Positions 6,044-28,802 of a stretch of DNA of 32,000 nt are shown here, piece by piece (within the stretch, counting starts at the first letter, position 1; every line of letters begins with the position of its first letter). This DNA comes from an archaeon (GTDB lineage Archaea > Iainarchaeota > Iainarchaeia > Iainarchaeales > CSSED10-239): assembly GCA_035390665.1 (NCBI GenBank), contig DAOOUC010000001.1:1-32000 (forward strand), read 5' to 3'. The notes below the pieces were generated by a model. The model saw only the letters and a program-made list of their open reading frames with translations. It ran no database searches and was not told where the DNA came from. The position numbers and the translations under genes were made by a program.

Positions 6044-6436
6044 TTATTTTTGTTCTAGCGGTTTTGCTTTTTTATTTTTAAAATAAAGATATATATAGAT
6101 ACCTAAAAAAACAAATGGAGCACCTAAAAAGAAATAGGCAAATATGCAGGAAATACCACCACTAACGCCACAACCCATGCCGCTTAAAATAAATAACGGT
6201 ATAAATCCAAATAAGCTGAAGACAAAAGCAAATAATGGCCAAGCAGGCAATTCTGATTTCGCACTTATTTTACTAAACAGCCAATATAAAAAACCAAAAA
6301 AACAAATTGCAATTCCAAAAACTATAATTGCAGGTACTATTCCAAACGTATTCATTAGAAAAACAAAACTAAAAAAAGAAAAAAACATTACAATTATTAT
6401 GATTACCCAACCTAGTGCATCTGATTTTTCTGCCAT
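6044..6436 (-). CDS. hypothetical integral membrane protein (about 4 TM)
   Basis: 130-aa ORF with ATG start, strongly hydrophobic with four predicted helices and a Lys-rich tail. No family recognised. Confidence 0.6.
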   Translation of the reverse strand: MAEKSDALGWVIIIIVMFFSFFSFVFLMNTFGIVPAIIVFGIAICFFGFLYWLFSKISAKSELPAWPLFAFVFSLFGFIPLFILSGMGCGVSGGISCIFAYFFLGAPFVFLGIYIYLYFKNKKAKPLEQK

Positions 6437-6597: not shown

Positions 6598-7002
6598 ATG
6601 AAAACAAAAAAAAACAATAAACAAAAATATAGACTAATGATTGCTTTTGGTGCATTTTTTGCAGCAGTTGCATCATTCTGTTCTTTTCATAATTTAATAT
6701 CTGATGCTGTTGCATCTGGAATAATCGGCGCGGCAACTTGTTTGTTTACGATTGGTATTGTTAGATTATATATTAGAAAAGAACCATTGATAGATGAAAT
6801 GGTAAAAACCGCAAATCAAAAAGCAATTTCTGGGGTATGGGTATTAACTTTAATTTTAACAACAATGTTATTTTGGATAAATTTAATTTTTAAAGATAAA
6901 TTATCTGTAATGCTTGTATTATCCATAATCTTATATTTTATGCTTTTTAGTGTCTTGATATTAAGATATTATTATTTGAAACATGGAATTGAAAAAACAT
7001 GA
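6598..7002 (+). CDS. DUF2178-like membrane protein
   Basis: 134 aa with four hydrophobic helices and a central [12 protein letters not shown] segment resembling the DER-containing loop of DUF2178 proteins. Its stop overlaps the start of the downstream HTH gene (ATGA), the usual arrangement for this pair. Confidence 0.55.
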
Positions 7003-7211
7003 AAACAAAACTAAAAGAATTCCGTGCAAGATTTAATATTACTCAAGAAGATCTTGCAAATAAAGTAGGAGTTAGAAGAGAAACAATTCTTTTTATTGAA
7101 AAAGGAAAATATAACCCTTCATTAAAACTTGCAAAAAAGATAGCTAATGTCTTTAATGAAAAAATAGACGATATTTTTATATTTGATAAAAAAGAATTAG
7201 AAGCAGATTAA
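6999..7211 (+). CDS. XRE-family helix-turn-helix transcriptional regulator (YozG-like)
   Basis: 70 aa. [48 protein letters not shown] is a textbook Cro/C1 (XRE) HTH. It is translationally coupled to the upstream membrane protein. Confidence 0.9.
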
Positions 7212-7778
7212 TTATTCTTTAAAATCAATATCATCAATTGCTGTTTCTTCTGTTTCTTTATAATTCTTTAAACTCTTATTGGATTTTAACATTCTAAAAA
7301 CTGTTGTGTGTTTACAACCGCCAATTATTGCTTCTACTATTTTTTGAATCTCTGCCATATCTTCTGATTTAGCAATTATTCCAACAGTCTTACCAAAAAC
7401 ACTTATGTGACAATTAAAGTGTCTTTCAATCATATTCTTGATTGACCCTTCTCTTCCAATAATTCGCCCCTTTATTTGCTCTAAGCGGCTTTCATTTTTT
7501 CCAGCCATGTCACTTAAAGTTATTACTTCAATAGTATAATCCTCTTTTAAAATATCAAAAGCAACCTCTGGAGAAAATCCTCTTGAGATTGCAGACACTA
7601 ATTTTTTAGAATTATAGACGTCATAGTAATTGTTTCCACCAACAATTATTATCTCGCCAGTATGACTATCGATATCTAGTCTTGTGTGAGTGGCTTTCTC
7701 TATTTTTCTTTTAGTTACTCCGTTTGGCCCAATAATCATTGGAATTCTTTGTAAAGTAACTTTAATTATTTCTTCCAT
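7212..7778 (-). CDS. KH-domain RNA-binding protein (Dim2/Pno1-like)
   Basis: 188 aa with two KH-like modules (IIGPNGVTKRKIE and IIGREGSIKNMIE, GXXG loops). It sits in the conserved archaeal aIF1A-RIO-KH gene neighbourhood. Confidence 0.85.
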   Translation of the reverse strand: MEEIIKVTLQRIPMIIGPNGVTKRKIEKATHTRLDIDSHTGEIIIVGGNNYYDVYNSKKLVSAISRGFSPEVAFDILKEDYTIEVITLSDMAGKNESRLEQIKGRIIGREGSIKNMIERHFNCHISVFGKTVGIIAKSEDMAEIQKIVEAIIGGCKHTTVFRMLKSNKSLKNYKETEETAIDDIDFKE

Positions 7779-15898: not shown

Positions 15899-17224
15899 TT
15901 ACTCTAATTCAAAAGTACTTGCCATAAACTCTAATTGATTAGAGAAATCATTCATCTTTGCTTTTCCTGTAACTATTACGTGCTTACCAAATAATTTCTT
16001 TTCTGCTTTATAATAGATTTCATCTTTTTCTTCAGGAGTTAAATCTTTTTTAAGTTCTTCTTTTTTTACTTCAAAGGCGTCTTCTAGTAATTGGTTAAAA
16101 AGACTTACTTTTATTACTCCTGTGCCGTCATCAATATTAATTGAAGAGAAGGTGTTCATTGTTGGATCTACAGGTTTATTACAAGCCTCACAAATAAATT
16201 CATTATTTATTAAGAAAACTTTTTCTTTACATTCTGGGCATTTAAATGACCTTAATGCTCCTTTGTTAATTGTTACAACTGTTCCACTTATCTTGTAGTT
16301 GTTATTATTTTCTAAATTGGATATTTTTTCCTCTTTTATATCTGTTGTTGTTAATTCTGAAAGACTTGGTATCTTTATTTTTGTTTTTGGATTTTTAGTA
16401 ATTGTTGAGTTCCAGTTGATATATAGTTCTAACTCAGAATCAAAATTTCTTTCTTTTATTGTTACATCACTTAATCTTACTAAATCGCCTTTTGAAAAAC
16501 TATTTGAAATCTCTTTAGCAAATGCATCAAAAGCAACACACCTTATGGATTTTATTCCATCACTTACTTCAAAGTTAATTACTTGCCTTTCCTTATCTTC
16601 TTTTGTAAATGTTTTTATTGGATAAATATTTATTATTCTTGCAATGGTGTCTACTGGTGATGTTGGTGGGGAATCAATTTCAGAAATCTTAACTGCGGTC
16701 TCTTTTATTTTTGGAATGTCTATTCCTTCAGGATCTTTTATTATTTGTCCGCCTTGTCTTAATGATAGTTCTGTTTTTTCATTATATTGATTTACTCCTG
16801 CATCTTTAATAAGTAACAAATCGTTTTTTTCTAAATTTAATTCTTTAACTATCTCTGCTTTATCTTGCCATAAATTTAATTTTATAAAACCTGTTTCGTC
16901 TTCTAGGTAAAGTGCTTGAATCTTGCCATCACTTCCATCTTTTGATTTGTATATTTTTACTGGAGGAATTGATTTTACTCTTGCATATAAAGAAACAGAA
17001 TCAATGCTTGCTGAAATTTCAGAAACTTTAGTTATTGCACTAGCTTGTTGTTTTAAATCCAGATCTACTCCAAATTGCTTTGAAAGAAGAATGTTTGCTC
17101 CAACATCACTTAAAAGACCTTCGTATTTAGTTTTTATTTCTTCTAATTTTGTTTGAAGCTCAGAATCAGATTTTCCTGTTTGTTTTTTAATAATATTATA
17201 AATTTGTTCACTTGTAAGTTGCAT
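15899..17224 (-). CDS. rpa: replication protein A (ssDNA-binding, multi-OB-fold with zinc ribbon)
   Basis: 441 aa with repeated OB-fold modules (e.g. ISLYARVKSIPPVKIY.., TIARIINIYPIKTF.., YKISGTVVTINKGALRSF) and a C4 zinc ribbon embedded in the last OB (CPECKEKV..CEACNKPV), as in archaeal RPA1/RPA41. Confidence 0.88.
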   Translation of the reverse strand: MQLTSEQIYNIIKKQTGKSDSELQTKLEEIKTKYEGLLSDVGANILLSKQFGVDLDLKQQASAITKVSEISASIDSVSLYARVKSIPPVKIYKSKDGSDGKIQALYLEDETGFIKLNLWQDKAEIVKELNLEKNDLLLIKDAGVNQYNEKTELSLRQGGQIIKDPEGIDIPKIKETAVKISEIDSPPTSPVDTIARIINIYPIKTFTKEDKERQVINFEVSDGIKSIRCVAFDAFAKEISNSFSKGDLVRLSDVTIKERNFDSELELYINWNSTITKNPKTKIKIPSLSELTTTDIKEEKISNLENNNNYKISGTVVTINKGALRSFKCPECKEKVFLINNEFICEACNKPVDPTMNTFSSINIDDGTGVIKVSLFNQLLEDAFEVKKEELKKDLTPEEKDEIYYKAEKKLFGKHVIVTGKAKMNDFSNQLEFMASTFELE

Positions 17225-17308
17225 TATTTTTCACCTAATATATATTTATGAAAACAATATATTAAAAAGTTACCTGGAGCGGCCACCTTTTGTAATATTT
17301 GGAATTTA

Positions 17309-17626
17309 TTATGTAATTATTTCTCTTAATAATTTCTCTAATTCTAAATATATTTCTTTTCTTTTGCTATAGCACAAATAACAAATTTTTTGCATAACTG
17401 TATGTTTTGGCAACATAAAAATGTAATTTAATTTTAGTATACTTTCTTTTATTAACCCATCTCCTTTAGTCAATCTTATTCCAGACATTTTTAAATTACT
17501 AGTTATACCAATAACAACAATATTTTCAAAATCAGAAAATAAAACAAAGGCAGGCCTTATTTTAGAATTAGAATTATCAATAAATGGAACATCTATTAAA
17601 ACTATTTCTCCTGCTTTGACCTCCAT
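17309..17626 (-). CDS. type II toxin, PemK/MazF family
   Basis: AGEIVLIDVPFIDNSNSKIRPAFVLF...IVVIGITSN matches the MazF/PemK SH3-like core. The track start (17635) is TTG; the ATG at 17624-17626 is likelier. The gene overlaps the 3' end of the upstream antitoxin-like ORF. Confidence 0.8.
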   Translation of the reverse strand: MEVKAGEIVLIDVPFIDNSNSKIRPAFVLFSDFENIVVIGITSNLKMSGIRLTKGDGLIKESILKLNYIFMLPKHTVMQKICYLCYSKRKEIYLELEKLLREIIT

Positions 17627-17838
17627 TTTTCCCAATCCTCATCTTCTTTATTATCCCATAATTCTTTCATTTTTGTTTTTTGAGCGGCAAGCACAATTTT
17701 AAGATATTCATCTTTTGCTTTTCTAGACTTTAATAGATTAGATATTACTTCATCAAAAGATTGCCTTGGGTGCAGCTTTAATTTTTTTAAATTATTTACT
17801 ACTGTTTTTGACAACTGGATTGTTGTATATTCTTGCAT
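17602..17838 (-). CDS. putative antitoxin partner of the MazF-like toxin
   Basis: Small ORF immediately upstream of and overlapping the toxin gene. The N-terminal TTIQLSKTVVNNLKKLKLHPRQSFDEVISNLL resembles archaeal antitoxin-type DNA-binding N-termini. The track start (17850) is the GTG of a GGTGA SD; ATG at 17836-17838. Confidence 0.6.
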   Translation of the reverse strand: MQEYTTIQLSKTVVNNLKKLKLHPRQSFDEVISNLLKSRKAKDEYLKIVLAAQKTKMKELWDNKEDEDWEKWRSKQEK

Positions 17839-17920
17839 ATCTATAATCACCTATAAGTAATTATAGTTGGATGCTCTTTTAAACCCTATAGTTATATTAG
17901 TGTTTTTCAAAAGGGCATAT

Positions 17921-17946
17921 TTTTCGGGGGGGTAGCTGTCCAGTGC
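17921..17946. repeat. GC-rich conserved block, copy 1 (TTTTCGGGGGGGTAGCTGTCCAGTGC)
   Basis: Exact 26-nt match to copy 3 and one mismatch to copy 2. The upstream flank GTTTTTCAAAAGGGCAT is also shared with copy 3. It lies 83 nt upstream of the minus-strand antitoxin ATG and 78 nt upstream of the plus-strand ATPase ATG. Confidence 0.9.
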
Positions 17947-18023
17947 GAGAAACCAAAACAAAGAAATATAAATATAAAGTTGTATTATATATTTACTAAA
18001 ATATATTTTAAGAATGAGAAAAC

Positions 18024-20336
18024 ATGAAGATTGGTAACTATACTGTTGGAGATTATGTTGTTGATAATGAGGGGGGAAAGAAAAAGCTTGTCTTTGATTG
18101 TAGACATTGTGTTTACAATACTTCTATATCTGATGATCCGAGATGTAGATACCACGTCATGAAGATATTAGAAACCGTTGATGCTGATGAAGTTATTTTA
18201 GCTGAAGTTTATGAAAGAGTTTATACTCAAAAACAAATTTCATACTTAAGAGAAATGGTTGATCTTTTGCTTGATTTTGAAAATAGAGCTGTTTGGATTT
18301 CATCTCATCTTGGTGTGGATGATATTGATTGTGAAGAGTGCTATCCACAAAGACATAATAATATTATTAGATTTACAAGAGATCTTTTAGCATATGATCC
18401 TATTGCCTCATATATTTCACTTTTAAGAGAAATAGAAAACACAAGAAACAGAGGAGAAGAACAATCTGATAAACCTTGTTCTAAATGTTTTAAAGCCAAT
18501 CTAAAACACCTTCTTTCTTTAAGAGAACAATATGATTCTACTGATTTTATTAAAGCATTAAAACCAATTCTTACTAAAGTAAAAGACTTTAATGACTTAA
18601 CTGACATTTATAAAACACTATTTGAAGCACAAATTAAACCTGCTTTTATTGGCTCACAATTACTTAGAAGTGATGCAGAAAAATTCGAGCTTGTTGACGA
18701 ATATCCTGTTTTAACATCTAATGTTCAGATTTTTAAACACCCTGAAAAGGTTGAATTTATTTACAATATCAATCCTCCAGAGTACACTTTGTCTCCGGAT
18801 CATTATTTTGTTTTATCTAAAACAAAAGAAACTGTTGCTAACTATCAGCCAGGTAAAGTAACTTTAACTTCTGGAAGTGGAACACGAAAATATTTCCAAA
18901 GAATATATCAGAGCACAATTTCTGATGTTGCAAGAAGATATGGAATTAGTCTTTCACCAGATGACGTTATTTCACTTTCAGAAATTGTTACAAGATATAC
19001 TATTGGTTACGGGATATTAGAGATGGTTTTATCAGATAGAAGAGTAACAGATGTTTATATTGATTCTCCAATTGGTGGTAGACCAATCTATCTTGTGCAT
19101 TCACAATATGGCCAATGTCAAACAAATATTCTTTATACAGACAAAGAAGCAGAAAGCCTTATTGGAAAGATGAGAGCAATGTCTGGCAGACCATTTGATG
19201 ATGCTCATCCAATCTTAGACTTTGATATACCCGATCTTAACACAAGAGTTGCTGCTATTGGAAGGCCTCTAGCCACTGATGGTAATGCTTTTGCTTTTAG
19301 ATTACATAAAGATACTCCTTGGACTTTGCCTCAACTTATTAATTTTAAATCACTTAGCCCACTAGCTGCAGGATTATTATCTTTTTTTATTGATAATAAC
19401 TCTACTCTTTTAGTTGCAGGTTCTCGTGGTTCTGGTAAGACTTCTTTAATGACAGCTTTAATGCTTGAAATCTTACAGAATAAAAGAATTATTGTTCAGG
19501 AAGATACCCTCGAGTTACCAATTATGTATCTTAAAGATATTGGATTTAATGCTCAAAGACTTAAAACTAAATCAGCTGTTGGTGCTGGAGAAGAATCTGT
19601 TGAAGTTGAACCTGCTGATGCCTTAAGAACTGCTCTAAGACTTGGCGATTCTGCAATCATTGTTGGTGAAGTTAGAAGTGTTGAAGCAAAAGTTCTTTAT
19701 GAAGCAATGAGAGTTGGTGCTGCGGGAAACGTTGTTATGGGGACAATACACGCAGATTCTGCTTATGCTGTTTGGGATAGAGTTGTTAACGACCTAGAGG
19801 TTCCAACAACCTCTTTTAAAGCAACTGATTTGGTTGTTGTTGCAAGACCAATAAGATTTAAAGGCTCTTTAAAAAGTTATAGAAGAGTTGTTCAGATTAC
19901 TGAAGTTAAAAAACATTGGAATCAAGACCCAGATGCAGAAGGCGGACTTCTTGATATTATGACTTATGATGCAAGTAAAGACTCATTAATACTTAATGAA
20001 GATGCACTTAAGGATTCTGATCTTTTTACAAAGATTTCTACTCTTTCAGGTTTAACTATTGAAGAAATCTGGGATAATATTAAGATGCTTGCAGGAGAAA
20101 AAGAATATCAAGTAGAACTTGCAAGAGAACTTAAATGTATTGAGCTACTTGAAGCAGAAAACACTGTTGCTGCACACAACAAGCTATTGATACTTAAAGA
20201 AGAATGGATAGAAGACCATGGAAAAGTCAATTATTCAGAGCTACTTACAGAATGGAAGAGATGGTATAAAGAAGACTTCTGCCCAAAGATTGTAAAAAGA
20301 ATAAACGAGAATAAAGAAAAGGAAAAAGAAGAATAA
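18024..20336 (+). CDS. type II/IV secretion-system ATPase (FlaI/PilB/VirB11 superfamily) with long N-terminal extension
   Basis: 770 aa. The C-terminal half has Walker A (VAGSRGSGKTSLM), an Asp box (IIVQEDTLEL), Walker B (IIVGEVRSVEA) and a His box (GTIHADSA). The N-terminal region of about 450 aa contains Cys clusters (CRHCVYN..CRYH, CEECYPQRH, CSKCF). Confidence 0.88.
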   Translation: MKIGNYTVGDYVVDNEGGKKKLVFDCRHCVYNTSISDDPRCRYHVMKILETVDADEVILAEVYERVYTQKQISYLREMVDLLLDFENRAVWISSHLGVDDIDCEECYPQRHNNIIRFTRDLLAYDPIASYISLLREIENTRNRGEEQSDKPCSKCFKANLKHLLSLREQYDSTDFIKALKPILTKVKDFNDLTDIYKTLFEAQIKPAFIGSQLLRSDAEKFELVDEYPVLTSNVQIFKHPEKVEFIYNINPPEYTLSPDHYFVLSKTKETVANYQPGKVTLTSGSGTRKYFQRIYQSTISDVARRYGISLSPDDVISLSEIVTRYTIGYGILEMVLSDRRVTDVYIDSPIGGRPIYLVHSQYGQCQTNILYTDKEAESLIGKMRAMSGRPFDDAHPILDFDIPDLNTRVAAIGRPLATDGNAFAFRLHKDTPWTLPQLINFKSLSPLAAGLLSFFIDNNSTLLVAGSRGSGKTSLMTALMLEILQNKRIIVQEDTLELPIMYLKDIGFNAQRLKTKSAVGAGEESVEVEPADALRTALRLGDSAIIVGEVRSVEAKVLYEAMRVGAAGNVVMGTIHADSAYAVWDRVVNDLEVPTTSFKATDLVVVARPIRFKGSLKSYRRVVQITEVKKHWNQDPDAEGGLLDIMTYDASKDSLILNEDALKDSDLFTKISTLSGLTIEEIWDNIKMLAGEKEYQVELARELKCIELLEAENTVAAHNKLLILKEEWIEDHGKVNYSELLTEWKRWYKEDFCPKIVKRINENKEKEKEE

Positions 20337-20340
20337 CTAA

Positions 20341-21234
20341 CTAAGCAGAATACTTTATTATTTTCTTTTTAGGACTAAGTAATTTCTTTTGCTTCTCTTC
20401 TAATTTTTTCTTTTCAGAAAAGTAGTTGTCTTTTGTAACTACTTTTTGATAGGTTTTTGATTCTAGTTCTTTTCTTGCATTCTTTGCTATTCCTCCACCA
20501 ATTATTCCTGACTCTTTGTTTTCTGTAAAACCTGTTGATTTTGTGGATTCTGCAACTTTTCTTGTTGATAATTCTGCTAGGGCTGTAAAAATAATTTCTG
20601 CATCAGTCATGTGATCTCTTAAATTGTCTTTATCTATGCCTTTTAGTTTTTTATGTTCTTTAACTGTTAAATCTGACCACTCTTGATGTATTATGTTTGT
20701 TAATATAGCATATTCCTCTGGAGTTTTAATCTCGTGGTTCTTCCAATAATTTGTTAATTTGTTTCTTATTTCTTGACCAAGCATTCTTTGTTGTATCCAT
20801 TGCTCGTCATAACCTTTTTGTAGCCAGATATTTCTGGCTCTGTTTATGGCTAATTCTGGATCGATTATTTCTTTTATTCTTTGATTACCAACTCTAGCAA
20901 GCCAAAGTTTGAATGGTTCTGCTTTCTTTGAAGGAATTGATTGTATTATTCTAAATATTCCTTCCAAGTTTGCACAATCTGTTTCATAAAATTTGCCATC
21001 AGAAGATTGTAATTTCAGTTGTACGATTTTACCGTACAACTGATTATTAGTTGTAACCACTTCGCTTCCTTCTTCTTTCAGTTTTATTTTAAGATCTGAC
21101 CAATATCTCTTTGGCTCAGAACTTTCAGTTAATGCCCTTACCACATCTACTACAGAGTACCACCAATCTTCTTGATGCCACATCCGTCTTATATTTTTAT
21201 CTTCAAAAACCTCAATTTGATTTATATCACTCAT
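20341..21234 (-). CDS. Bro-N domain protein, DinD-like (DNA-damage-inducible protein D family)
   Basis: N-terminal Bro-N pattern (IRRMWHQEDWWYSVVDVVRALTES..PKRYWSDLK) followed by DCANLEGIFRIIQSIPSKKAEPFKLWLARVG and NLRDHMTDAEIIFTALAE, as in bacterial DinD-type proteins. The track start (21246) is TTG; the ATG at 21232-21234 follows a GGTGA. Confidence 0.8.
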   Translation of the reverse strand: MSDINQIEVFEDKNIRRMWHQEDWWYSVVDVVRALTESSEPKRYWSDLKIKLKEEGSEVVTTNNQLYGKIVQLKLQSSDGKFYETDCANLEGIFRIIQSIPSKKAEPFKLWLARVGNQRIKEIIDPELAINRARNIWLQKGYDEQWIQQRMLGQEIRNKLTNYWKNHEIKTPEEYAILTNIIHQEWSDLTVKEHKKLKGIDKDNLRDHMTDAEIIFTALAELSTRKVAESTKSTGFTENKESGIIGGGIAKNARKELESKTYQKVVTKDNYFSEKKKLEEKQKKLLSPKKKIIKYSA

Positions 21235-21254
21235 CTTGATCACCAATAATATAG

Positions 21255-21425
21255 TAGCGATTATAAGAAGGGGGTATTTTCGGGAGGGTAGCTGTCCAGT
21301 GCAACCGGTTGCGGTCTCATAAAAAATCCTAATTTTTTAGGATCCTAAAAAGTCTTTGACTTTTTTTGAGGTTGGCGCCCAGCCTGGTTGTGTGTTGTTC
21401 TACTAACCCCTTTAGAAAAGTTGTT
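21255..21425. other. extended GC-rich conserved intergenic element, copy 2 (candidate structured RNA or cis-regulatory module)
   Basis: Contains the block TTTTCGGGAGGGTAGCTGTCCAGTGCA (21277-21303), a variable insert with nested inverted repeats, then TTGTGTGTTGTTCTA (21388-21402) and CCCCTTTAGAAAAG (21407-21420). The last two are shared with copy 3. It is markedly more GC-rich than its surroundings. Confidence 0.8.
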
Positions 21426-21533
21426 GCGATCCCAAAAACTACGATTTAAAGAAATGTTTGTTGTTTTCTTGAGAATTAGACATATGAAAATTTCAAATTA
21501 ACAAAATTAAAAAAATAGAAAAAAGGAAGAACT

Positions 21534-21764
21534 TTATTTCTTCTTTTTTTTACTTGATTTTTTTATTTTAGTTTTGGCTTGCTTTTTCTTTTTAGAGAAA
21601 ACAAAGATATATAGCAATGGCAATATACCTGCAGTATTAAAAATAAAAATAAACACAAACCAAATAAGGTGATTATTTTTACCTGCCTTCCATAAAGCTA
21701 TACCTTTCCAAACCATTTCCCATATTGCTAAAAGAACAAATGCAATTAGAACGAATGTATCCAT
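21534..21764 (-). CDS. DUF5652-like small membrane protein
   Basis: 76 aa with two TM helices. The WKGIALWKAGKNN...FIFNTAGILPLLYIF pattern is typical of small CPR/DPANN membrane proteins, and the tail is poly-Lys. A strong AGGAGGG SD lies upstream and oligo-T runs lie downstream. Confidence 0.6.
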   Translation of the reverse strand: MDTFVLIAFVLLAIWEMVWKGIALWKAGKNNHLIWFVFIFIFNTAGILPLLYIFVFSKKKKQAKTKIKKSSKKKKK

Positions 21765-21910
21765 AGTAGTTATCCCTCCTTAAAACAATTTAATTAAAAA
21801 CTTTTAAAAATGGAACTGTAAGCAATATTTTCAGTATATATTTAAAATATTTAAAATAAAGATAATAATCTATAATCTGTTTGGTAGAAACAAAAAGAAA
21901 GTCAATAAAA

Positions 21911-21950
21911 GATGAAAACTCTTGACTACGACACCCTGTATCATCTGCAG
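21911..21950 (-). pseudogene. degenerate relic of the S-layer gene 3' end
   Basis: GATGAAAACTCTTGACTACGACACCCTGTATCATCTGCAG aligns with 23490-27 (GATGAAAGCTCTTGTAGCTGCACCTGTATCATCTGCAG). The alignment includes a 16-nt exact core, CCTGTATCATCTGCAG (21935-21950 = 23512-23527). The relic encodes ..ADDTG.. and then goes out of frame. Confidence 0.7.
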
Positions 21951-21962
21951 AAAAATCTTAAA

Positions 21963-23159
21963 CTAATATAAAAATCCAAATAGAAACAATGGGATTTTAT
22001 TACCATCACAAGCTAAACTATCTACTACTAAATAGTCTGCTTTTTGCTTGTTTTTTTTATTTTCTCCACCAACTTCAAAGACTTTATTATTTATCATAAA
22101 ATCCGCAGATTTCTCTTTACCTGTCTTAATATAACACTCAGCATTACTTAAATATACAAAAAAATCTTCTCTAAGTGAGCCAAGATTTGGATTTTTATTT
22201 AAGGTGTGATTAAAAAAATATCTAAATGGCAAATTAAGAAATATTTTAGGATCTGTTCTTATTAGTGGATATCCTGAATTACAAGATCTTAGTTGTTTTA
22301 AAATATTTATTTTTTCTAAATCTGCAATTATAGCTACAATTGTATTTCTACTCACTCCATTTATAGATTTGGATAAATTTGAATAACTCATTTCAAATGG
22401 AGCAGATGTAGATAATAGATATAAAATGTTATATATGTCTGTTTCAACTTTCGGATTTATAGATCTTAAGTTACTGATGTCTGAATATATTATTTTTTTA
22501 AAAATATTATCTATTGATTTATAAAATTCAGAGATATCTTTACTTTTATTATATAGAAAACCACCGAATTTGCAATAATCAGTATAATAATCATAATATA
22601 TTGAATAATTATTTACTAATGTTTTTCTTTTTTTATTATCTAGTAAGTCTTCTTGCTTTATTGGTTCTATATTTTTATCATACATTATGTTAATGTATTC
22701 TCTTAGGGATGCTTGTTTTAATTCATATAATAAAACCCTTCTTGATAAGTCTGCGCCCTTTAATATATTTAGAGAAGAAGAACTTGTAAAATAAATTTTT
22801 ACTTTTTCTTCATCATAAATATTTTTTAAATGTTGTTGCCAATTTTCTTTGTAAGCTATTTCATCTATAAATATGTTTTTATATTCTTTTTTTATTAAAA
22901 ATTTTAAAATATCATAAAGGCTATATTTAGATAAATATATAGAATCTGCTGAGAAATAAATTGCATCTTTTTTTTTGTCAAATAATTGTAATAGTAATAT
23001 TGTTTTACCAATTCCTCGTAAACCAGTTATTCCTATAAAATAATCAGAATTATAATTTACTAGATCATTATAAAGATATCTAGTTTTTGGATATCCCTTA
23101 ACTACTTCTTTTTTATTTTGACTTTCTTGAAACATTTTAGAAAAGATAACTTCATTCAT
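21963..23159 (-). CDS. AAA+ ATPase (COG1373-like, AAA plus DUF4143-type C-terminal region)
   Basis: 398 aa. Walker A (GITGLRGIGKTILLLQL), Walker B (NIFIDEIAY), and a C-terminal winged-helix-like and nuclease-like region ending in a conserved-looking D/E-rich core (ADFMINNKVFEVGGENK). Confidence 0.75.
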   Translation of the reverse strand: MNEVIFSKMFQESQNKKEVVKGYPKTRYLYNDLVNYNSDYFIGITGLRGIGKTILLLQLFDKKKDAIYFSADSIYLSKYSLYDILKFLIKKEYKNIFIDEIAYKENWQQHLKNIYDEEKVKIYFTSSSSLNILKGADLSRRVLLYELKQASLREYINIMYDKNIEPIKQEDLLDNKKRKTLVNNYSIYYDYYTDYCKFGGFLYNKSKDISEFYKSIDNIFKKIIYSDISNLRSINPKVETDIYNILYLLSTSAPFEMSYSNLSKSINGVSRNTIVAIIADLEKINILKQLRSCNSGYPLIRTDPKIFLNLPFRYFFNHTLNKNPNLGSLREDFFVYLSNAECYIKTGKEKSADFMINNKVFEVGGENKKNKQKADYLVVDSLACDGNKIPLFLFGFLY

Positions 23160-23200
23160 TATTATTCACAAATATATATGAGTGAAAAGGTTTTTAAATA

Positions 23201-23325
23201 TGTCAGAGGATTGACAGAAAATGAGTTTTTTTAGTCAATCTCTTGACAATATAGATTAGCCTGTGCTTTTTAAAAGTGTCATTGAAAATGACGCTTTTTT
23301 CATTTTTTTGTCATTTAAAGTGACA
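23201..23325. promoter_or_regulatory. array of TGTCA-N6/7-TGACA inverted repeats upstream of the AAA ATPase gene
   Basis: TGTCAgaggatTGACA (23201-23216), GTCAAtctcTTGAC (23234-23247), TGTCAttgaaaaTGACg (23277-23293) and TGTCAtttaaagTGACA (23309-23325). All lie within 170 nt upstream of the ATG at 23159. Confidence 0.55.
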
Positions 23326-23432
23326 GATTTAAGTTATTTAAAATTATAATAATTTAGTCTTATAGTAAGAATAAAAATAAACTACAGACATAAAAAGAAT
23401 TAAAATTTAAACTAAAAGAAAAAAGAAAGAAA

Positions 23433-23456
23433 GTTAATAGAATTTCTTCTATTAAC
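23433..23456 (-). terminator. intrinsic terminator-like hairpin downstream of the S-layer gene
   Basis: Perfect 10-bp inverted repeat GTTAATAGAA-TTTC-TTCTATTAAC starting 19 nt past the stop codon. On the minus strand it is followed by a T-rich run (TTTCTTTCTTTTTTCTTTT). Confidence 0.7.
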
Positions 23457-23474
23457 TTATATTGTGTTTTCTAC

Positions 23475-25838
23475 TTATTGTATTGCTGTGATGAAAGCTC
23501 TTGTAGCTGCACCTGTATCATCTGCAGTGAAACCAGCAACAACTATGTTACCTGTTGTAGTATCTTTACCCATTACCCATTGACCTGCTTGTGTTAAGTA
23601 ATCGTTTGTTACACCAACAGCTAACTTGTTAGCTAAGTGACCACCGACTATGATCTTTGTACCAGCAACTGAAGCTAAATCAGACTTTACTAAGTTGATT
23701 GGATCAACATTTGCAGGAACTGTTGTTGTGTATGAACCTGTAGTTGCATCTGTTCCTTCTGTTCCTTCTGTTGTTGTTGTTCCGTTACCTACGAAAACTT
23801 TTCCATATAATTTATCTTCAGGAACTGTTGCTGTAAATGTTCCACCGTCTACTTCTAACTTAGTACCCCATGTTGTATAACCGAATCTCAAATCGTCTGT
23901 TTCTTCTTGATTTAATGTGAATCCTGTTGCTACAACTTGATCTAATCCTGCTTCGTAAGAGGAGTCGTCTGTATCAACTAATTCTCCAGTATATGCATCA
24001 ATATATGCTACTGCAGTTTGTGAAGAATCATCTATTGTTAATGAAAACATAGATTCCATATCTGTGTCTGTTACTGTTGTTGCGCCAACATTTGTTGCAC
24101 CAACATATGTATCTGCATTTGCATCATCTGTGCCTATATCGTAGTAGATTTTACTTACTGTCCATGATTGACTAGATTCTAATGTATCTGTTGCGCCGTC
24201 TTTTAAAGCAACAGCTAATTCTGTTATTGTGTCTGTATCTTCGTTTAAGAATACACCGTATGCTATCTTTTTAGTCTCGTTGTTATATAATGGGATTGTT
24301 ATATCTACGAATCCAACGAAATCATCTGCTTCTCCATCTGATGCATTTCCATCGAAATAGAATTTTTCTGTAGCTGCAGGGGTTGCTGTAGATTTCCATG
24401 ACCAACTGCTAGCTGTAGATAAGAATTTACCGTCGTCATTTTCTAATTGAACGGTGAAATATCCTGATTCCTTTGTACCGGTTTGTGTTAAATCATCGTC
24501 TGTATAGAATTCGAAGTATAAATTTTTTCCATCGATTTCTTTTGTTGTTGTATAATTGTCTCCATCTGCATAAGTGCTGTCGTCGTGTTCATAGATAAAT
24601 ATATCGTGATCATCGTCGCTTGCATCAGTATATGAAAGATATCCGTTTTCAACAATTACTTGTTTACTTGATTCATCACTTAATCCTAAGAAATTTATTT
24701 TTGCAAAGTTGTTTGGTAATGAAATTTCATCTCCAACTTTAAGTGCATCATCATCTTTATAACGTATATCTTGATCATCATTATAGAAACTGATTGTAGT
24801 TACTGTGTCTCCAGAAGAATATGACCCCTCTGCATTAAATTGAACTTTCCATAATTCGTCTCCTATTTCTGGGAAGTCTTCAACAATTTGTCCATCAGTT
24901 AAATCAATTCTTGCACTTGTTCCTGAAACAACAGTTACTCTTGAATTATATACTGTGTCTATTTCTGTATCTATGTCTAAGTAATCATCAAAGATAGTAT
25001 CTCCATCGCCATAGACTTCTGTTGCTAATGTAGTTCCATCTTTACTTATTGACATTTCAACTTCGTATTGTGTTCCTGATGATGAACTCTCTAATATTTC
25101 TTCTATTGTTACAGTATAGTCTTCAACTTCAAAAGATGCACCTACAGTATATGGTATTGTTGCTTTATTTTGTACTAAGGTCATTGTATTTGTGGTATAA
25201 TCTTCTAATGTATATTGTTTACCGAATATATTGAATTTTAAGTCGGGACTTCCGTTATCTGTAGCATTTACATCTATTCCTGGAGTAAACTCTATTCTAT
25301 ACTCTATACCTTCTTTATCAATTGCTGCGGTTAAATCTGCTATGTCTTTATCGTCATCAAATGAAACAGTGGATGTAATATCTAATTTTTCTTTGACATT
25401 TATTGTATCGTCACCAAATTCTTCATCATCTACTCTTACATCATAATCTCCAAGTAGCGTGTAGTCGCCATCATCTAATTCTAATGTTCTTGAATTGCCT
25501 AAATCAAACAAATCGTCACTTAATTTACCGTCTCCGGAAACTGTTGTTGTTCCTGTTGTTCCTTCTGTGCCTGGAATCTCGTATGTGTGTGTCTCGGTTG
25601 TGTATGCTTTAGATGCAATTGCTGCTGCAATGTTACCTGCCCAGATTGAATCTGCTGCTTGTGATTCGTTTCCAACTATTATTGTTGCTGTTGGCATTCC
25701 GTTTGTGCCGATTACGTCGCCCTTTACTACTGGACTACCGAAATCAACTTGTGCTGCTACTGCTGCACCTAAGAAACTTGCACCTACTGCAAGTGCTGCT
25801 GCGCCAGCAATAACTTTTTTTGTATTTATATTCTTCAT
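23475..25838 (-). CDS. putative S-layer/major surface (glyco)protein
   Basis: 787 aa. N-terminal signal peptide (KKVIAGAAALAVGASFLGAAVAA), then an acidic Thr/Asp/Gly-rich, Cys-free sequence with many N-x-S/T sequons. It has a strong GGAGG SD, a long upstream leader, its own terminator, and noticeably higher GC and biased codon use than its neighbours. Confidence 0.7.
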   Translation of the reverse strand: MKNINTKKVIAGAAALAVGASFLGAAVAAQVDFGSPVVKGDVIGTNGMPTATIIVGNESQAADSIWAGNIAAAIASKAYTTETHTYEIPGTEGTTGTTTVSGDGKLSDDLFDLGNSRTLELDDGDYTLLGDYDVRVDDEEFGDDTINVKEKLDITSTVSFDDDKDIADLTAAIDKEGIEYRIEFTPGIDVNATDNGSPDLKFNIFGKQYTLEDYTTNTMTLVQNKATIPYTVGASFEVEDYTVTIEEILESSSSGTQYEVEMSISKDGTTLATEVYGDGDTIFDDYLDIDTEIDTVYNSRVTVVSGTSARIDLTDGQIVEDFPEIGDELWKVQFNAEGSYSSGDTVTTISFYNDDQDIRYKDDDALKVGDEISLPNNFAKINFLGLSDESSKQVIVENGYLSYTDASDDDHDIFIYEHDDSTYADGDNYTTTKEIDGKNLYFEFYTDDDLTQTGTKESGYFTVQLENDDGKFLSTASSWSWKSTATPAATEKFYFDGNASDGEADDFVGFVDITIPLYNNETKKIAYGVFLNEDTDTITELAVALKDGATDTLESSQSWTVSKIYYDIGTDDANADTYVGATNVGATTVTDTDMESMFSLTIDDSSQTAVAYIDAYTGELVDTDDSSYEAGLDQVVATGFTLNQEETDDLRFGYTTWGTKLEVDGGTFTATVPEDKLYGKVFVGNGTTTTEGTEGTDATTGSYTTTVPANVDPINLVKSDLASVAGTKIIVGGHLANKLAVGVTNDYLTQAGQWVMGKDTTTGNIVVAGFTADDTGAATRAFITAIQ

Positions 25839-26258
25839 TTTATTTCCTCCATTGTTGATTTTCTTTTTCTAGAAAAGAAAACCGTTTTGTTTTATGAAGA
25901 TTGAATCTGCATTTATGTTTTGACCTAAAAAAATAAAACGGTACTAAACAGATTCACACTAATGTCTCGAAGTAATTACTTCAAGATATAAGACTTTATT
26001 GTGGAATAATGTTTATAAATGGTTTGTTTTTGGATTGTTAACAACTGGTGCTTATAAATGCATGCAGAGAAAGGGATTACAGGAAATATTGGTTGTTTGG
26101 TTATGTATAACTAACTACTAAAAAGCTAATTTTTAAAAAAAATTAAAAGTAAGAGACTAATATATATATAATATATTATAAAAGAGAAATAAGATTACAA
26201 AAATCCCTGTAAGACTTATATCTTTTTCTGCCCTTTCTTCTTTAGATATATCTCTAAC

Positions 26259-27215
26259 TTAATCTAATCTGTCTAATATGGTTAATGAATCTTTATCTAG
26301 TTTTGAAAATGCAACCCATCTTTTGCCAAGATCTTTAATGGATGCACCTAAATGATATATTTCTTTTTTATCAAGAATTAAAAAACGATCATGGCTTTTA
26401 GTAAAGTGCTTTAGTTTAATATTTGAATATTGATTGTTATATTTCTCCAAATCAAGTTTAAGTTTTTCTGTAATTTTATCTGTATATATTGTAATTTCTA
26501 TATTTTTTAGATTTGAAAATAGCACAAGAACTGATTCATCTATGTAGTTATCTATAAGAATTATTGATTTATTTGCATTTTTAAAAAGATTATTAATAAA
26601 TAGGTAAGCGTCAAATATTTGACCATCATAAAAAACACCTTGTGTTTTTAACACACTTTTATTTGAAATTGCATCAAATATCTTTTCTACTTTTTTATCA
26701 GTTTCTATTTGTTTGTTTTCTAAATTATCTACTCTTACAAACAAATCAGCATTTTTGTGTATTAATTGCCTCATAGAAATAAAGGCACGCATTATGTAAA
26801 TATTTATCAATATTGCCCTTTTACTTTTTAAAACTCCAGAAAGCATTGCTATGCCTTGTTCAGTAAAAACGAATGGAAGTTTACGTTTCCCGCCCCATTC
26901 TAAACTTGAAGTCACAAATTGTGACTTCAAGATTTTTGAGTTTTGGTTTGAGATTGCAAATTGTGACATCAAACGATTATCATCAATACTAGCATTTTCA
27001 GTTAATTCCATCAGAATTTCAAATTCCTTAGAAGTTAATTGAAACATAAAATCTTCAGGAAATCTATCACTGTTTCTCTTAACGGCCTGATTCAATACTT
27101 TAGTAGGGACACCATAAAGTTCTGCAAGATCGCTGTCAAGCATTACTTTTGTGTTTCTTACCGTGTGTATTTTACTAGTTAAGTTTTCTACAAGTACTAA
27201 ATTATCTGAAGTCAT
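26259..27215 (-). CDS. ORF6N domain protein (KilA-N/Bro-N superfamily DNA-binding protein)
   Basis: 318 aa. VRNTKVMLDSDLAELYGVPTKVLNQAVKRNSDRFPEDFMFQLT and WGGKRKLPFVFTEQGIAMLSGVLKS are the ORF6N signature. The C-terminal IILIDNYIDESVL..HDRFLILD..YHLGASIKDLGKRWVAFSKL matches the usual C-terminal domain of this family. Confidence 0.85.
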   Translation of the reverse strand: MTSDNLVLVENLTSKIHTVRNTKVMLDSDLAELYGVPTKVLNQAVKRNSDRFPEDFMFQLTSKEFEILMELTENASIDDNRLMSQFAISNQNSKILKSQFVTSSLEWGGKRKLPFVFTEQGIAMLSGVLKSKRAILINIYIMRAFISMRQLIHKNADLFVRVDNLENKQIETDKKVEKIFDAISNKSVLKTQGVFYDGQIFDAYLFINNLFKNANKSIILIDNYIDESVLVLFSNLKNIEITIYTDKITEKLKLDLEKYNNQYSNIKLKHFTKSHDRFLILDKKEIYHLGASIKDLGKRWVAFSKLDKDSLTILDRLD

Positions 27216-27221
27216 AAATAT

Positions 27222-27424
27222 ATATTGTTTTCAAAAAAAGGCATTGTTTTCGGGGGGGTAGCTGTCCAGTGCAATCTACTGTTTTCTGGTGGGTAATCTG
27301 CCCGATTGTGTGTTATTCTAATGGTGCTCCTTTAAAAAATTGCTTTACACAAATTTTTGGCTTCTATAAAACCAGACAGTAGAATAACCGGTTTTGCCAG
27401 AGATCGGTTGGTAGAGTGCCCGGT
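27222..27424. other. extended GC-rich conserved intergenic element, copy 3 (candidate structured RNA or cis-regulatory module)
   Basis: Contains the block TTTTCGGGGGGGTAGCTGTCCAGTGCA (27246-27272), TTGTGTGTTATTCTA (27305-27319) and CTCCTTTAAAAAAT (27326-27339). It also has two related 20-mers (27287-27306 and 27405-24, 15/20 identical) and an 11-bp long-range complement (27275-27289 with 27370-27381). Confidence 0.8.
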
Positions 27425-28705
27425 TTATTTTTGAGATAATAGCCACTGATATAATGGAATATAATATATTGTATTTTTGCCAAGCTTTTCTTCTTTAGAT
27501 AGATCTTTAGTAATTATTGTGCCTTTATCTATATTTAATGAAGCCATAGCTTCTAGAAGACCATTTATTTCTCTATCTTTTGTAGAGTCATTAAAATCAA
27601 AACAAACTTGTATTGCTTCTACTTTGTTATTAGTTACGGCAATAAAATCACATTCGCTTTTACCTTTAAAATAGTAAACTTCTTTATTTTTTCTTTTTAG
27701 CTCAATAAAAACAAGATTTTCAAAATTCCAGCCATCGTTAGTGCCTGGTCTTTTAAGTAAACAATTAGAAAGACCTGTATCTATTACATAACATTTTTTA
27801 GGATTACTGTTTTGTTTTCTTTTTGAATTTGAATATATTGGTACAAAGAAAAAATACATTGTGTTATCTATATAATCTGAAAACAAATAAAGTGTGTCTT
27901 TACTTATTGCTCTATTTTGAGACTTTAAATAATTATAATAGCTATTTACTGAAAAACCCCTTGAGTTGTTATTTACTAAATACAAAAGTAAATCTTTAAC
28001 TATGTCTATTTGCTTTATGTTATATCTTTCTATAATGTCTCTAAAAATTAGAACATTAAAATAATTTTGTAGAACTTCGCACCTTATTTGTGAATCTATT
28101 GCTATTACTTCTGGAAAGCCCCCATTTGTTAGATAGTTTTCTAATTCTCTAACTAAGACATGCCTTTTAGAAGAATATATAGTTGTATTATCAACCTTAA
28201 TTCCCTTAAACTCTAAATATTCTATAAAACTAAAAGGATAAACATAAATATCATAGGTTCTACCTCTTAATTCTGTTGATATTTCTTTACTTAATAATTT
28301 TGCTGAAGAGCCAGTAATAAATATTTTACATCTCTCTTTGTCGTAAATTCTTCGTATAAATTTTTGCCAACCATCTACACTTTGAATTTCATCAAAGAAA
28401 AAATAAATTTCCTCACCTTTATTTTGAGGATATAACTCAAAGTAATAATCTAAAATCTTTTGAAAATCAGTTATATTAAAATCCGAAAGTCTTTCATCTT
28501 CAAAATTTAAATATATTATTTTATCTTTTGAGATATCTTTTAAATCATATATTATCTGATATAGCATACTTGTTTTACCTGATCTTCTTGGGCCAATTAT
28601 TGTAATTATCTTATTTATATCTGGTATTTTATAATATCTAGGCAATAATTTTTTTTCAGGACACCCTTCTAATAATATTACTTTAAATAATTCTTTGTCT
28701 AACAT
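27425..28705 (-). CDS. AAA+ ATPase (AAA_14 plus DUF4143 type, COG1373)
   Basis: Walker A (IIGPRRSGKTSMLYQ), Walker B (YFFFDEIQSV) and sensor region (IFITGSSAKLL), with a C-terminal DUF4143-like/restriction-endonuclease-like end (ECDFIAV...EAIQVC). The track start (28711) is GTG; the ATG at 28703-28705 is likelier. Confidence 0.85.
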   Translation of the reverse strand: MLDKELFKVILLEGCPEKKLLPRYYKIPDINKIITIIGPRRSGKTSMLYQIIYDLKDISKDKIIYLNFEDERLSDFNITDFQKILDYYFELYPQNKGEEIYFFFDEIQSVDGWQKFIRRIYDKERCKIFITGSSAKLLSKEISTELRGRTYDIYVYPFSFIEYLEFKGIKVDNTTIYSSKRHVLVRELENYLTNGGFPEVIAIDSQIRCEVLQNYFNVLIFRDIIERYNIKQIDIVKDLLLYLVNNNSRGFSVNSYYNYLKSQNRAISKDTLYLFSDYIDNTMYFFFVPIYSNSKRKQNSNPKKCYVIDTGLSNCLLKRPGTNDGWNFENLVFIELKRKNKEVYYFKGKSECDFIAVTNNKVEAIQVCFDFNDSTKDREINGLLEAMASLNIDKGTIITKDLSKEEKLGKNTIYYIPLYQWLLSQK

Positions 28706-28744
28706 AAACACACACCATAATATATTTAGTTACAAACACATTAA

Positions 28745-28802
28745 AAAGGTTTCCTTCTAAAAAGGAAAGATTTTACTAAAGGTTTCCTTCTAAAAAGGAA
28801 AG
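28745..28802. repeat. two 25-nt direct repeats, each a hairpin/palindrome (AAAGGTTTCCTTCTAAAAAGGAAAG)
   Basis: Exact copies at 28745-28769 and 28778-28802, 33 nt apart start to start. Each contains TTTCCTT-ctaaa-AAGGAAA. They lie between the stop of 28822..29490 and the AAA ATPase start. Confidence 0.85.

Follow-up and report, generated by a model that had tools for sequence, protein, structure and literature searches.

A new, strongly conserved putative promoter-operator module marking DNA-repair and mobile-element-type genes of archaea

Three copies of a 27-nt block, TTTTCGGGRGGGTAGCTGTCCAGTGCRA, are found on the + strand of the archaeal DNA stretch of 32,000 nucleotides analysed here (the window), at 17921-17948, 21277-21304 and 27247-27274 (copies 1, 2 and 3), against zero matches expected from dinucleotide shuffles, in agreement with the recurrence reported in an earlier note. 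The question raised by this locus is whether copies 2 and 3 are parts of a longer structured RNA, as that note had proposed, or whether the block owes its conservation to another function. At a GC content of 29%, the window carries genes for archaeal replication proteins (MCM, Topo VI A and B, an RPA-like protein and a RIO kinase); one homologue of a neighbouring protein is labelled Candidatus Woesearchaeota, and the source is probably an uncultivated archaeon of the DPANN type. Further segments common to copies 2 and 3 are indeed present, namely TTGTGTGTTRTTCTA at 21388-21402 and 27306-27320 and CCYCTTTARAAAA at 21407-21419 and 27327-27339, although the coordinates first given for copy 3 were off by one, and the spacers between them and the block, 83 nt long in copy 2 and 31 nt long in copy 3, agree with the description. 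Both hairpins described for copy 2, ATCCTAA-TTTT-TTAGGAT (21326-21343) and AGTC-TTT-GACT (21351-21361), and the stack of GGUCUCAUAAAAAA with UUUUUUUGAGGUU appear in its MFE fold, the z-scores against shuffles being -3.09 on the + strand and -2.04 on the - strand for copy 2, and -1.87 and -1.24, respectively, for copy 3. A search of 384 kb of related sequence showed the two exact segments (15-mer and 13-mer) together only in copy 2, copy 3 and one further locus (L026), whose right part is of the copy-2 type, while a close relative of copy 3 (L023) carries diverged forms of both. The likeness between copies 2 and 3 is true homology extending beyond the block, as had been claimed; it is seen in only two lineages and does not characterize the family.

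The family itself was collected by an exact-pattern scan of species genomes, which returned nine archaeal matches in five MAGs, and by a degenerate scan of metagenome contigs, which added 38 more related loci; after de-duplication it consists of ~45 distinct copies on ~30 archaeal contigs (MAGs and metagenome). A scan of viral contigs with a 17-mer produced two chance matches in GC-rich coding DNA, and L003 and L013 are chance matches as well. According to the logo and information profile built from 37 copies at <90% mutual identity, conservation, counted from the first G of GGGNGGG, spans about -39 to +23, is strongest between -17 and +23 and drops to approximately zero information beyond +24, and the consensus of the resulting module of ~60 bp reads AATAATATA-N13-AAARGGGGYATTTTC-GGGNGGGTAGNTGTCCAGTGC-RAA. 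The wider family is devoid of any conservation right of the block, which removes the right-hand segments from the conserved element. Since the copies came from exact pattern scans, the near-100% identity of the 21-nt core, partly fixed by the search patterns, is biased upward. Positions -17 to -5 are free of this constraint and positions -17 to -1 mostly so, and over the latter interval orthologous RadA, Bro-N, ORF6N and 486-aa-gene loci are 67-85% identical, compared with 39-52% in the adjacent coding DNA and 25-35% in the right flank. Four loci found via protein rather than DNA pattern (L052, L053, L054 and L065) keep the block with few changes, TGTCC being invariant. Two isolated positions of the asymmetric block, +3 and +10, are free (N) and show no relation to each other across copies; free and non-covarying positions within a fixed asymmetric motif fit protein contacts better than base pairing. 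The palindrome GGGTAGCTGTCC was rejected as a candidate, all of C, A, G and T being present at its central base. A literature search, covering both the motif and a possible radA promoter element of DPANN archaea, brought up nothing relevant.

In the window, the module of copy 2 occupies 21243-21305 (- strand), i.e. -39 to +23 from the first G of GGGAGGG at 21282 (logo of 37 copies; nhmmer E = 1e-15), and is composed of AT-rich AATAATATA (21245-21253), AAGAAGGGGGTATTTTC (21265-21281) and the block core GGGAGGGTAGCTGTCCAGTGC (21282-21302), a layout repeated in the ~45 copies. It would act on the minus-strand gene at its left, which encodes a DinD-like Bro-N protein (20341-21234, ATG at 21234; Pfam Bro-N, 1.6e-9), starts 47 nt from the block and has the Shine-Dalgarno sequence GGTGATC, the reverse complement of 21238-21244. 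Some homologues of this protein are annotated as "DNA-damage-inducible protein D". The protein is ~60% identical to homologues from Rickettsia, Patescibacteria and Proteobacteria, and such identity to bacterial sequences points to cross-domain transfer of the gene. The module of copy 3 (27213-27275, - strand, first G of the G-run at 27252) precedes an ORF6N-domain gene (26259-27215, - strand; Pfam ORF6N, 7.6e-34), which begins 36 nt from the block, its start codon (ATG at 27215) adjoining the AT-rich end of the module. The module of copy 1 (17887-17949, - strand) has no extension; it is flanked on one side by the divergent VapB-like/MazF operon (ATG at 17838), on the other by a gene for a T2SSE-type ATPase (ATG at 18024).

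What the earlier note regarded as one longer element proved to be an assembly of parts that come and go between relatives. The extension of copy 2, designated X (21305-21451, 147 nt), is GC-rich and lineage-specific and contains a weak second block-like segment GGTTGGCGCCCAGCC, TTGTGTGTTGTTCTA (21388-21402), the TATA-like CCCCTTTAGAAAA (21407-21419) and GATTTAAAG (21443-21451). It is present in L061 and L026 and absent from L052 and L055-L059, where Bro-N orthologues with 90-91% protein identity are preceded by the block followed directly by TATA-like AGTGTATAT and then by AAATGTTTGTTG, which equals the window sequence from 21452 onward. The contig of L026 carries the two forms side by side, a Bro-N gene with the bare block and a YhcG gene with the block and an X-type right part, so that the arrangement in the window is explained by recombination between two blocks. 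The "variable middle" of the earlier note corresponds to a 53-nt AT-rich insert in X (21317-21369) with two hairpins and the inverted ends CTCATAAAAAA and TTTTTTTGAG; it is lacking in L026, which in this part is otherwise 89% identical, and its hairpin ATCCTAATTTTTTAGGAT was found only in the window and in L061 among all fetched DNA. A 55-nt stretch around this insert was considered as a repeated mobile unit and discarded, the hairpin being unique to this lineage. The extension of copy 3 (27275-27339) comprises GTTTTCTGGTGGGTAATCTGCCCGATTGTG (27281-27310), which repeats the block directly in degenerate form, as well as TTGTGTGTTATTCTA (27306-27320) and the TATA-like CTCCTTTAAAAAA (27327-27339), up to which, as far as 27339, likeness to the near-identical L023 continues. 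Missing from L023 is the adjoining 1.4 kb of the window (27340-28771), which carries an AAA_14/DUF4143 ATPase gene; the flanks are 98.7% identical. Other loci possess differing GC-rich extensions, all starting directly after CAGTGC; CCGGTTKCGS is located at +24 in seven of seven and GCTCGCGCGCAAT is recurrent. To judge from these sequences, the extension of copies 2 and 3 is most likely an optional, GC-rich, lineage-specific add-on and not a conserved structured RNA; it may be built partly of degenerate extra copies of the block together with a displaced TATA box, and such extensions would be gained, lost and shuffled through recombination between blocks.

The right junction of the ATPase region (28746-28797) has a tandem duplicate of the hairpin AAGGTTTCCTTCTAAAAAGGAAAG, and the GC-rich segment 27383-27430, just 3' of the ATPase gene, contains three CCGGTT(T) motifs, the same motif that opens several extensions. 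Arrays of a short hairpin repeat, NNNN-ACAAATTGT-NNNN followed by AACTC, occur in intergenic positions to the right of several blocks (L009 at ~6190-6410, L026 at 7270-7350, L029, L032 and L038), and their arms covary (GGTGAC/GTCACC, GTCGAC, GTACAC/GTGTAC and GTACCC/GGGGAC).

The proposed folding on the + strand was preserved in part. The helix H2, GUGCAAYC/GRUUGUGU, is kept in copies 2 and 3 and in L026 and L023 with one compensatory C-G to U-A swap, and it includes three G-U pairs workable on the + strand only, in line with the strand preference that had been claimed. In an RNAalifold alignment of the same four sequences the inner hairpin adds one further both-sides change, which makes two in all, from two lineages only. 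The outer helix, UUUUC.GGRGGG/CCYUUU.GAAAA, did not survive: a C-A mismatch is seen in copy 3 and in L023, two more of the six pairs are mismatched in L023, and RNAalifold dropped the helix. Eight related extensions gave fold z-scores of only -0.4 to -1.9. Hairpins anchored on GUGC of the block are significant in five of 41 copies (L004, L025, L034, L038 and L042, with z from -2.6 to -3.8 on the + strand and weaker values on the - strand), and a general hairpin after the block is absent in ~30 of the 41 (z near 0). The structured-RNA interpretation is only marginally supported, and the element as a whole is probably no conserved structured RNA. A local + strand hairpin may exist in the extension, H2 and the inner hairpin being kept, though the G-U bias would also be expected of C-to-T decay in unselected block-derived sequence of an AT-rich genome. 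Searches for known RNA classes were negative in all scopes covered: no Rfam 15 covariance match at gathering threshold over the whole window, only chance-level matches elsewhere at E <= 10 over 17000-28000, no match at E <= 1 for the elements of eight related loci, and no tRNA or tmRNA in the window by ARAGORN. Inspection also dismissed the block as a tRNA 5' half (no T-loop, no D-loop GG), as a G-quadruplex (three G-tracts only) and as a coding sequence (no consistent frame or start, with a stop two codons upstream in copy 3).

These data bear directly on the possibility that the locus produces a small or antisense RNA from the + strand, driven by the AT-rich box at -38 to -26 and starting from GGGNGGG, with the block as its 5' end and the extensions as optional structured 3' parts, and acting in cis on the neighbour by promoter occlusion or antisense pairing. 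In all copies a constant ~24 nt separate the AT-rich box from the C|G junction, folding is better on the + than on the - strand, H2 and the inner hairpin are maintained with their both-sides changes and G-U pairs, and among the copies with GUGC-anchored hairpins one (L025) ends in CGCGG-CUUAU-CCGCG followed by U6. Against this, the bulk of the family has neither such a helix nor any conservation after +23, the extensions behave as indels between orthologues, fold z-scores are weak and Rfam is silent, the AT-rich box is a poor TATA match (5-12% of copies at 7/8 or better), a second TATA box lies in many loci only ~25 nt past the proposed start, and + strand G-U pairs may equally arise when a C-rich copy, inverted or direct, decays neutrally from C to T in a genome with 29% GC. 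We consider such a transcript unlikely, if still worth attention.

The constant companion of the block is a gene on the opposite strand. In 41 of 43 evaluable copies a minus-strand start codon is found 35-96 nt left of the block, always in the same orientation; on its right, the block has a divergent gene about as often as the 3' end of another minus-strand gene. The gene families behind the module recur across MAGs, each with its own distance from block to ATG: RadA (six loci, 80-82 nt), a 486-aa protein without detectable homologues (five loci, 79-87 nt), a 49-aa protein with unassigned function (four loci, 46 nt), KilA-N (two loci, one truncated, 45 nt), RadC (one locus, 37 nt) and, at several loci each, DinD-like Bro-N (47-53 nt), ORF6N (36-47 nt), the YhcG/DUF1016 nuclease (35-36 nt) and a VapB-like antitoxin with MazF (87-96 nt). 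Taken together, these genes resemble a DNA-damage or mobile-gene response. Behind some modules, winged-helix-like proteins of 94-99 aa are encoded. The 486-aa protein is conserved, has a Cys-rich segment and is always encoded behind the module, left of the block (L007, L008, L015, L024 and L050); it has no match in Pfam, NCBIfam or PDB sequences, and a suspected likeness of its N-terminus to PolB found no confirmation. Genes of the 36-nt class belonging to unrelated families (ORF6N and YhcG) mostly begin with ATGACTTC (Met-Thr-Ser), adjoining the module, as observed at 27213-27220 of the window and in L011, L023, L026, L036 and L045, which gives the impression that the start codon moves along with the module.

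Signals of transcription and translation surround the block. A peak of TATA-like 8-mers is located at +25 to +29 (45% of copies on the + strand, 36% on the - strand, background ~10%), and such boxes are equally frequent in the absence (10/18) and in the presence (7/14) of a following + strand gene; among copies free of extension such a box is present at these positions in 17 of 32. The C|G junction is invariant in the 37-copy logo. A TATA-like box ~24 nt upstream of a pyrimidine-purine start, combined with a gene in fixed orientation, corresponds to the layout of an archaeal core promoter. In the class with 45-53 nt between block and ATG, Shine-Dalgarno sequences (GGTGAT, GGAGG) stand 5-9 nt before ATG at a constant distance from the block, implying that the mRNAs are leadered and start right of about -39. 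The earlier note had also offered a minus-strand small RNA driven by the TATA-like CAAYTTTTYTAAAGG, and this box is a plausible minus-strand promoter indeed, but the arrangement is better read as promoter and leader of the downstream mRNA, since a gene start with a Shine-Dalgarno sequence always follows the block.

The best explanation, which we favour by only a little over its negation, is that the 27-nt block is a protein-binding operator placed between the TATA box and the start of minus-strand transcription and marks a regulon of damage or mobile-gene character. In the scheme that we infer for transcription start, protein binding and sign of regulation, the ~60 bp would form a cis-acting DNA module serving as promoter and leader region of the minus-strand gene at its left, with the TATA box directly right of the block (+25 to +32), the block itself filling the interval from TATA box to start, and transcription predicted to begin near the invariant C|G junction. 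The conserved 5' leader bearing the Shine-Dalgarno sequence would then read GAAAAYRCCCCUUUU...AAUAUAUUAUU-GGUGAU. A putative sequence-specific protein bound to the long asymmetric block would control recruitment of RNA polymerase, and the co-regulated set would include RadA, RadC, DinD-like Bro-N, ORF6N, KilA-N, the YhcG nuclease, VapB-MazF and the 486-aa and 49-aa proteins. Several features are at odds with an operator. The 40-bp near-invariant non-palindromic motif is long for a typical one; the AT-rich segment (-38 to -26) has a spacing of ~24 nt to the C|G junction as well, which makes a + strand start geometrically as possible; none of the six extension-bearing copies, copies 2 and 3 included, has a TATA box adjoining the block, so that the block would sit deep inside a long leader there; and the long-distance class (RadA, VapB and the 486-aa gene) has a further TATA-like box between module and ATG, with a peak at -60.

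Another candidate is an element acting within the 5' leader of the minus-strand mRNAs, where the C-rich GCACUGGACANCUACCCNCCCGAAAA might be bound by a protein or by a G-rich RNA and thereby control translation or stability. Fixed orientation, nearby start codons and the Shine-Dalgarno sequence at a constant distance from the block are all consistent with it, and in copies 2 and 3 the TATA-like box 50-130 nt upstream on the minus strand implies that the block would be transcribed. However, little structure is predicted for the minus strand (z = -1.2 for copy 3), the helices turn there into C-A mismatches, and where the TATA box adjoins the block (+25 to +32) it predicts a start at the end of the block and leaves the block outside the mRNA. 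We rate this element as improbable because such a box predicts that the block is mostly untranscribed.

The traffic of module-bearing genes between relatives raises another alternative, in which the block is the end of a mobile unit or an attachment site, i.e. a recombination site or a portable promoter cassette travelling with accessory genes. Genes with the module appear as indels between close relatives: Bro-N with copy 2 is missing from L037, L047 and L049; the YhcG unit of L026 is absent from the window; L045 has 1.86 kb with two module-plus-gene units inserted at ~7212 of the window, flanked by AATTA on both sides; L014 has the module with a 99-aa winged-helix-like gene at the same junction; and unrelated genes share identical first codons ATGACTTC beside the module. 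Six MAG lineages nevertheless keep the module at the same site before the core gene radA, with flanks diverged to background, no terminal inverted repeats and no integrase or transposase accompany the copies, orientation is tied to the downstream gene, unlike that of MITEs, and ordinary homologous recombination between repeated blocks is sufficient to explain the indels. When compared with MITEs or transposon ends, most copies were found to have no inverted partner module, orientation followed the gene in 41 of 43, and a possible target-site duplication (AATTA) was seen only at the 1.86-kb insertion of L045. Inspection for the features of integron attC sites revealed no GTTRRRY/RYYYAAC pair; genes carry the module at their 5' end, and the window contains no integrase. 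A mobile end or attachment site thus earns little credence from us. The junction at ~7212, between ORFs 6999-7211 (+) and 7212-7778 (-), is an insertion hot spot, the flanks of L045 being 97.8% identical there.

Returning to the promoter-operator reading, its closest functional analogue appears to be the regulon of DDRE and Orc1-2 in Sulfolobales. In Saccharolobus islandicus, DDRE (the DNA-damage-response element, which contains 5'-ANTTTC-3') is bound by Orc1-2 at ~23-55 bp from the start codon, and its consensus of 20 bp is AATAGTTTCRGWDTACTCWS with the core AGTTTCRG (PMC6061795). As with the module described here, this is a promoter-proximal motif common to DNA-damage and DNA-transaction genes of an archaeon. 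The module's ATTTTCGG resembles the core AGTTTCRG, ATTTTC occupying -6 to -1 with 59-100% conservation per position at ~30-90 nt from ATG, but such a hexamer is common in AT-rich DNA and the likeness disregards strand; the remainder of the 20-bp consensus is unmatched, and the module is ~40-60 bp long with a G-run and TGTCCAGTGC. In bacteria, the LexA regulon relies on SOS boxes, palindromes of 16-20 bp bound by a dimer, and we know of no LexA in archaea. One operator shared by a recombinase gene (recA there, radA here), dinD-type and prophage or mobile genes is what both systems have in common, whereas our block is long and asymmetric and damage induction is here only a predicted trait. Archaeal repressors such as MDR1, Phr, TrmB and NrpR use operators between the TATA box and the start and block recruitment of RNA polymerase, their sites usually being short dyads; the block resembles them in its position, which covers the predicted start and directly follows a TATA-like box, and differs in that the start is a prediction and the TATA box is displaced in extension-bearing copies.

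Origin recognition boxes offer another parallel. The mini-ORB, e.g. TTCCAGTGGAACT of Pyrococcus with its G-string, has the invariant cores TTCC and GAA (PMC1904270, PMC1868953). The module's GTCCAGTGCAAA matches it at ~9-10 of 13 positions with a G-run nearby, and ORBs are likewise long, polar sites of a monomeric initiator, but the cores TTCC and GAA read here GTCC and CRA. The G-run of ORBs is on the other side than in the module. ORBs cluster around an AT-rich unwinding element beside orc1/cdc6, while the module copies are dispersed: those of the window are 3.4 and 6.0 kb apart and others are single, each before a different gene, and no orc1/cdc6 gene was seen beside the copies. The bacterial radC RNA motif of Rfam similarly precedes radC, integrase, KilA-type antirepressor and other DNA-related genes, but as a structured RNA in the 5' UTR, encoded on the same strand as the gene; the block shows no conserved pairing and no Rfam match by cmscan. 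Combining these analogies, one may speculate, with low expectation of being right, that DPANN-type archaea possess a lineage-wide SOS-like damage regulon (RadA, RadC, DinD-like, YhcG and mobile-element genes) whose operator is the module, recognized by a polar monomeric binder of the ORB type, for instance a non-initiator Orc1/Cdc6 paralogue as in Sulfolobales with a wholly different and much longer site, and that the face-to-face geometry of TATA boxes would make a short + strand transcript and the mRNA mutually exclusive.

To our knowledge, a DNA-damage regulon of archaea has been described for Sulfolobales only, and we are aware of nothing on gene regulation in uncultivated small-genome archaea of this kind. 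One long motif joining radA, radC, dinD-like, nuclease and antirepressor-type genes across MAG lineages provides a testable handle on a regulon; it also flags accessory genes gained and lost between close relatives and is relevant to genome annotation and to the way in which transferred genes acquire expression signals. Should it be just a strong shared promoter, it would still be a useful feature for annotation, if otherwise ordinary. The feature is in any case new and strongly conserved, and in the promoter-operator mechanism that we infer it marks genes of DNA-repair and mobile-element type. One variant deserves mention: at ~620-660 of L062, upstream of a Bro-N gene, the 5' half of the block with TTTTCGGGGGGGTA is kept while in the 3' half TGTCCAGTGC is swapped for a perfect palindrome, AGCTTGGCCAAGCT, a replacement that suggests a bipartite site with a swappable half.
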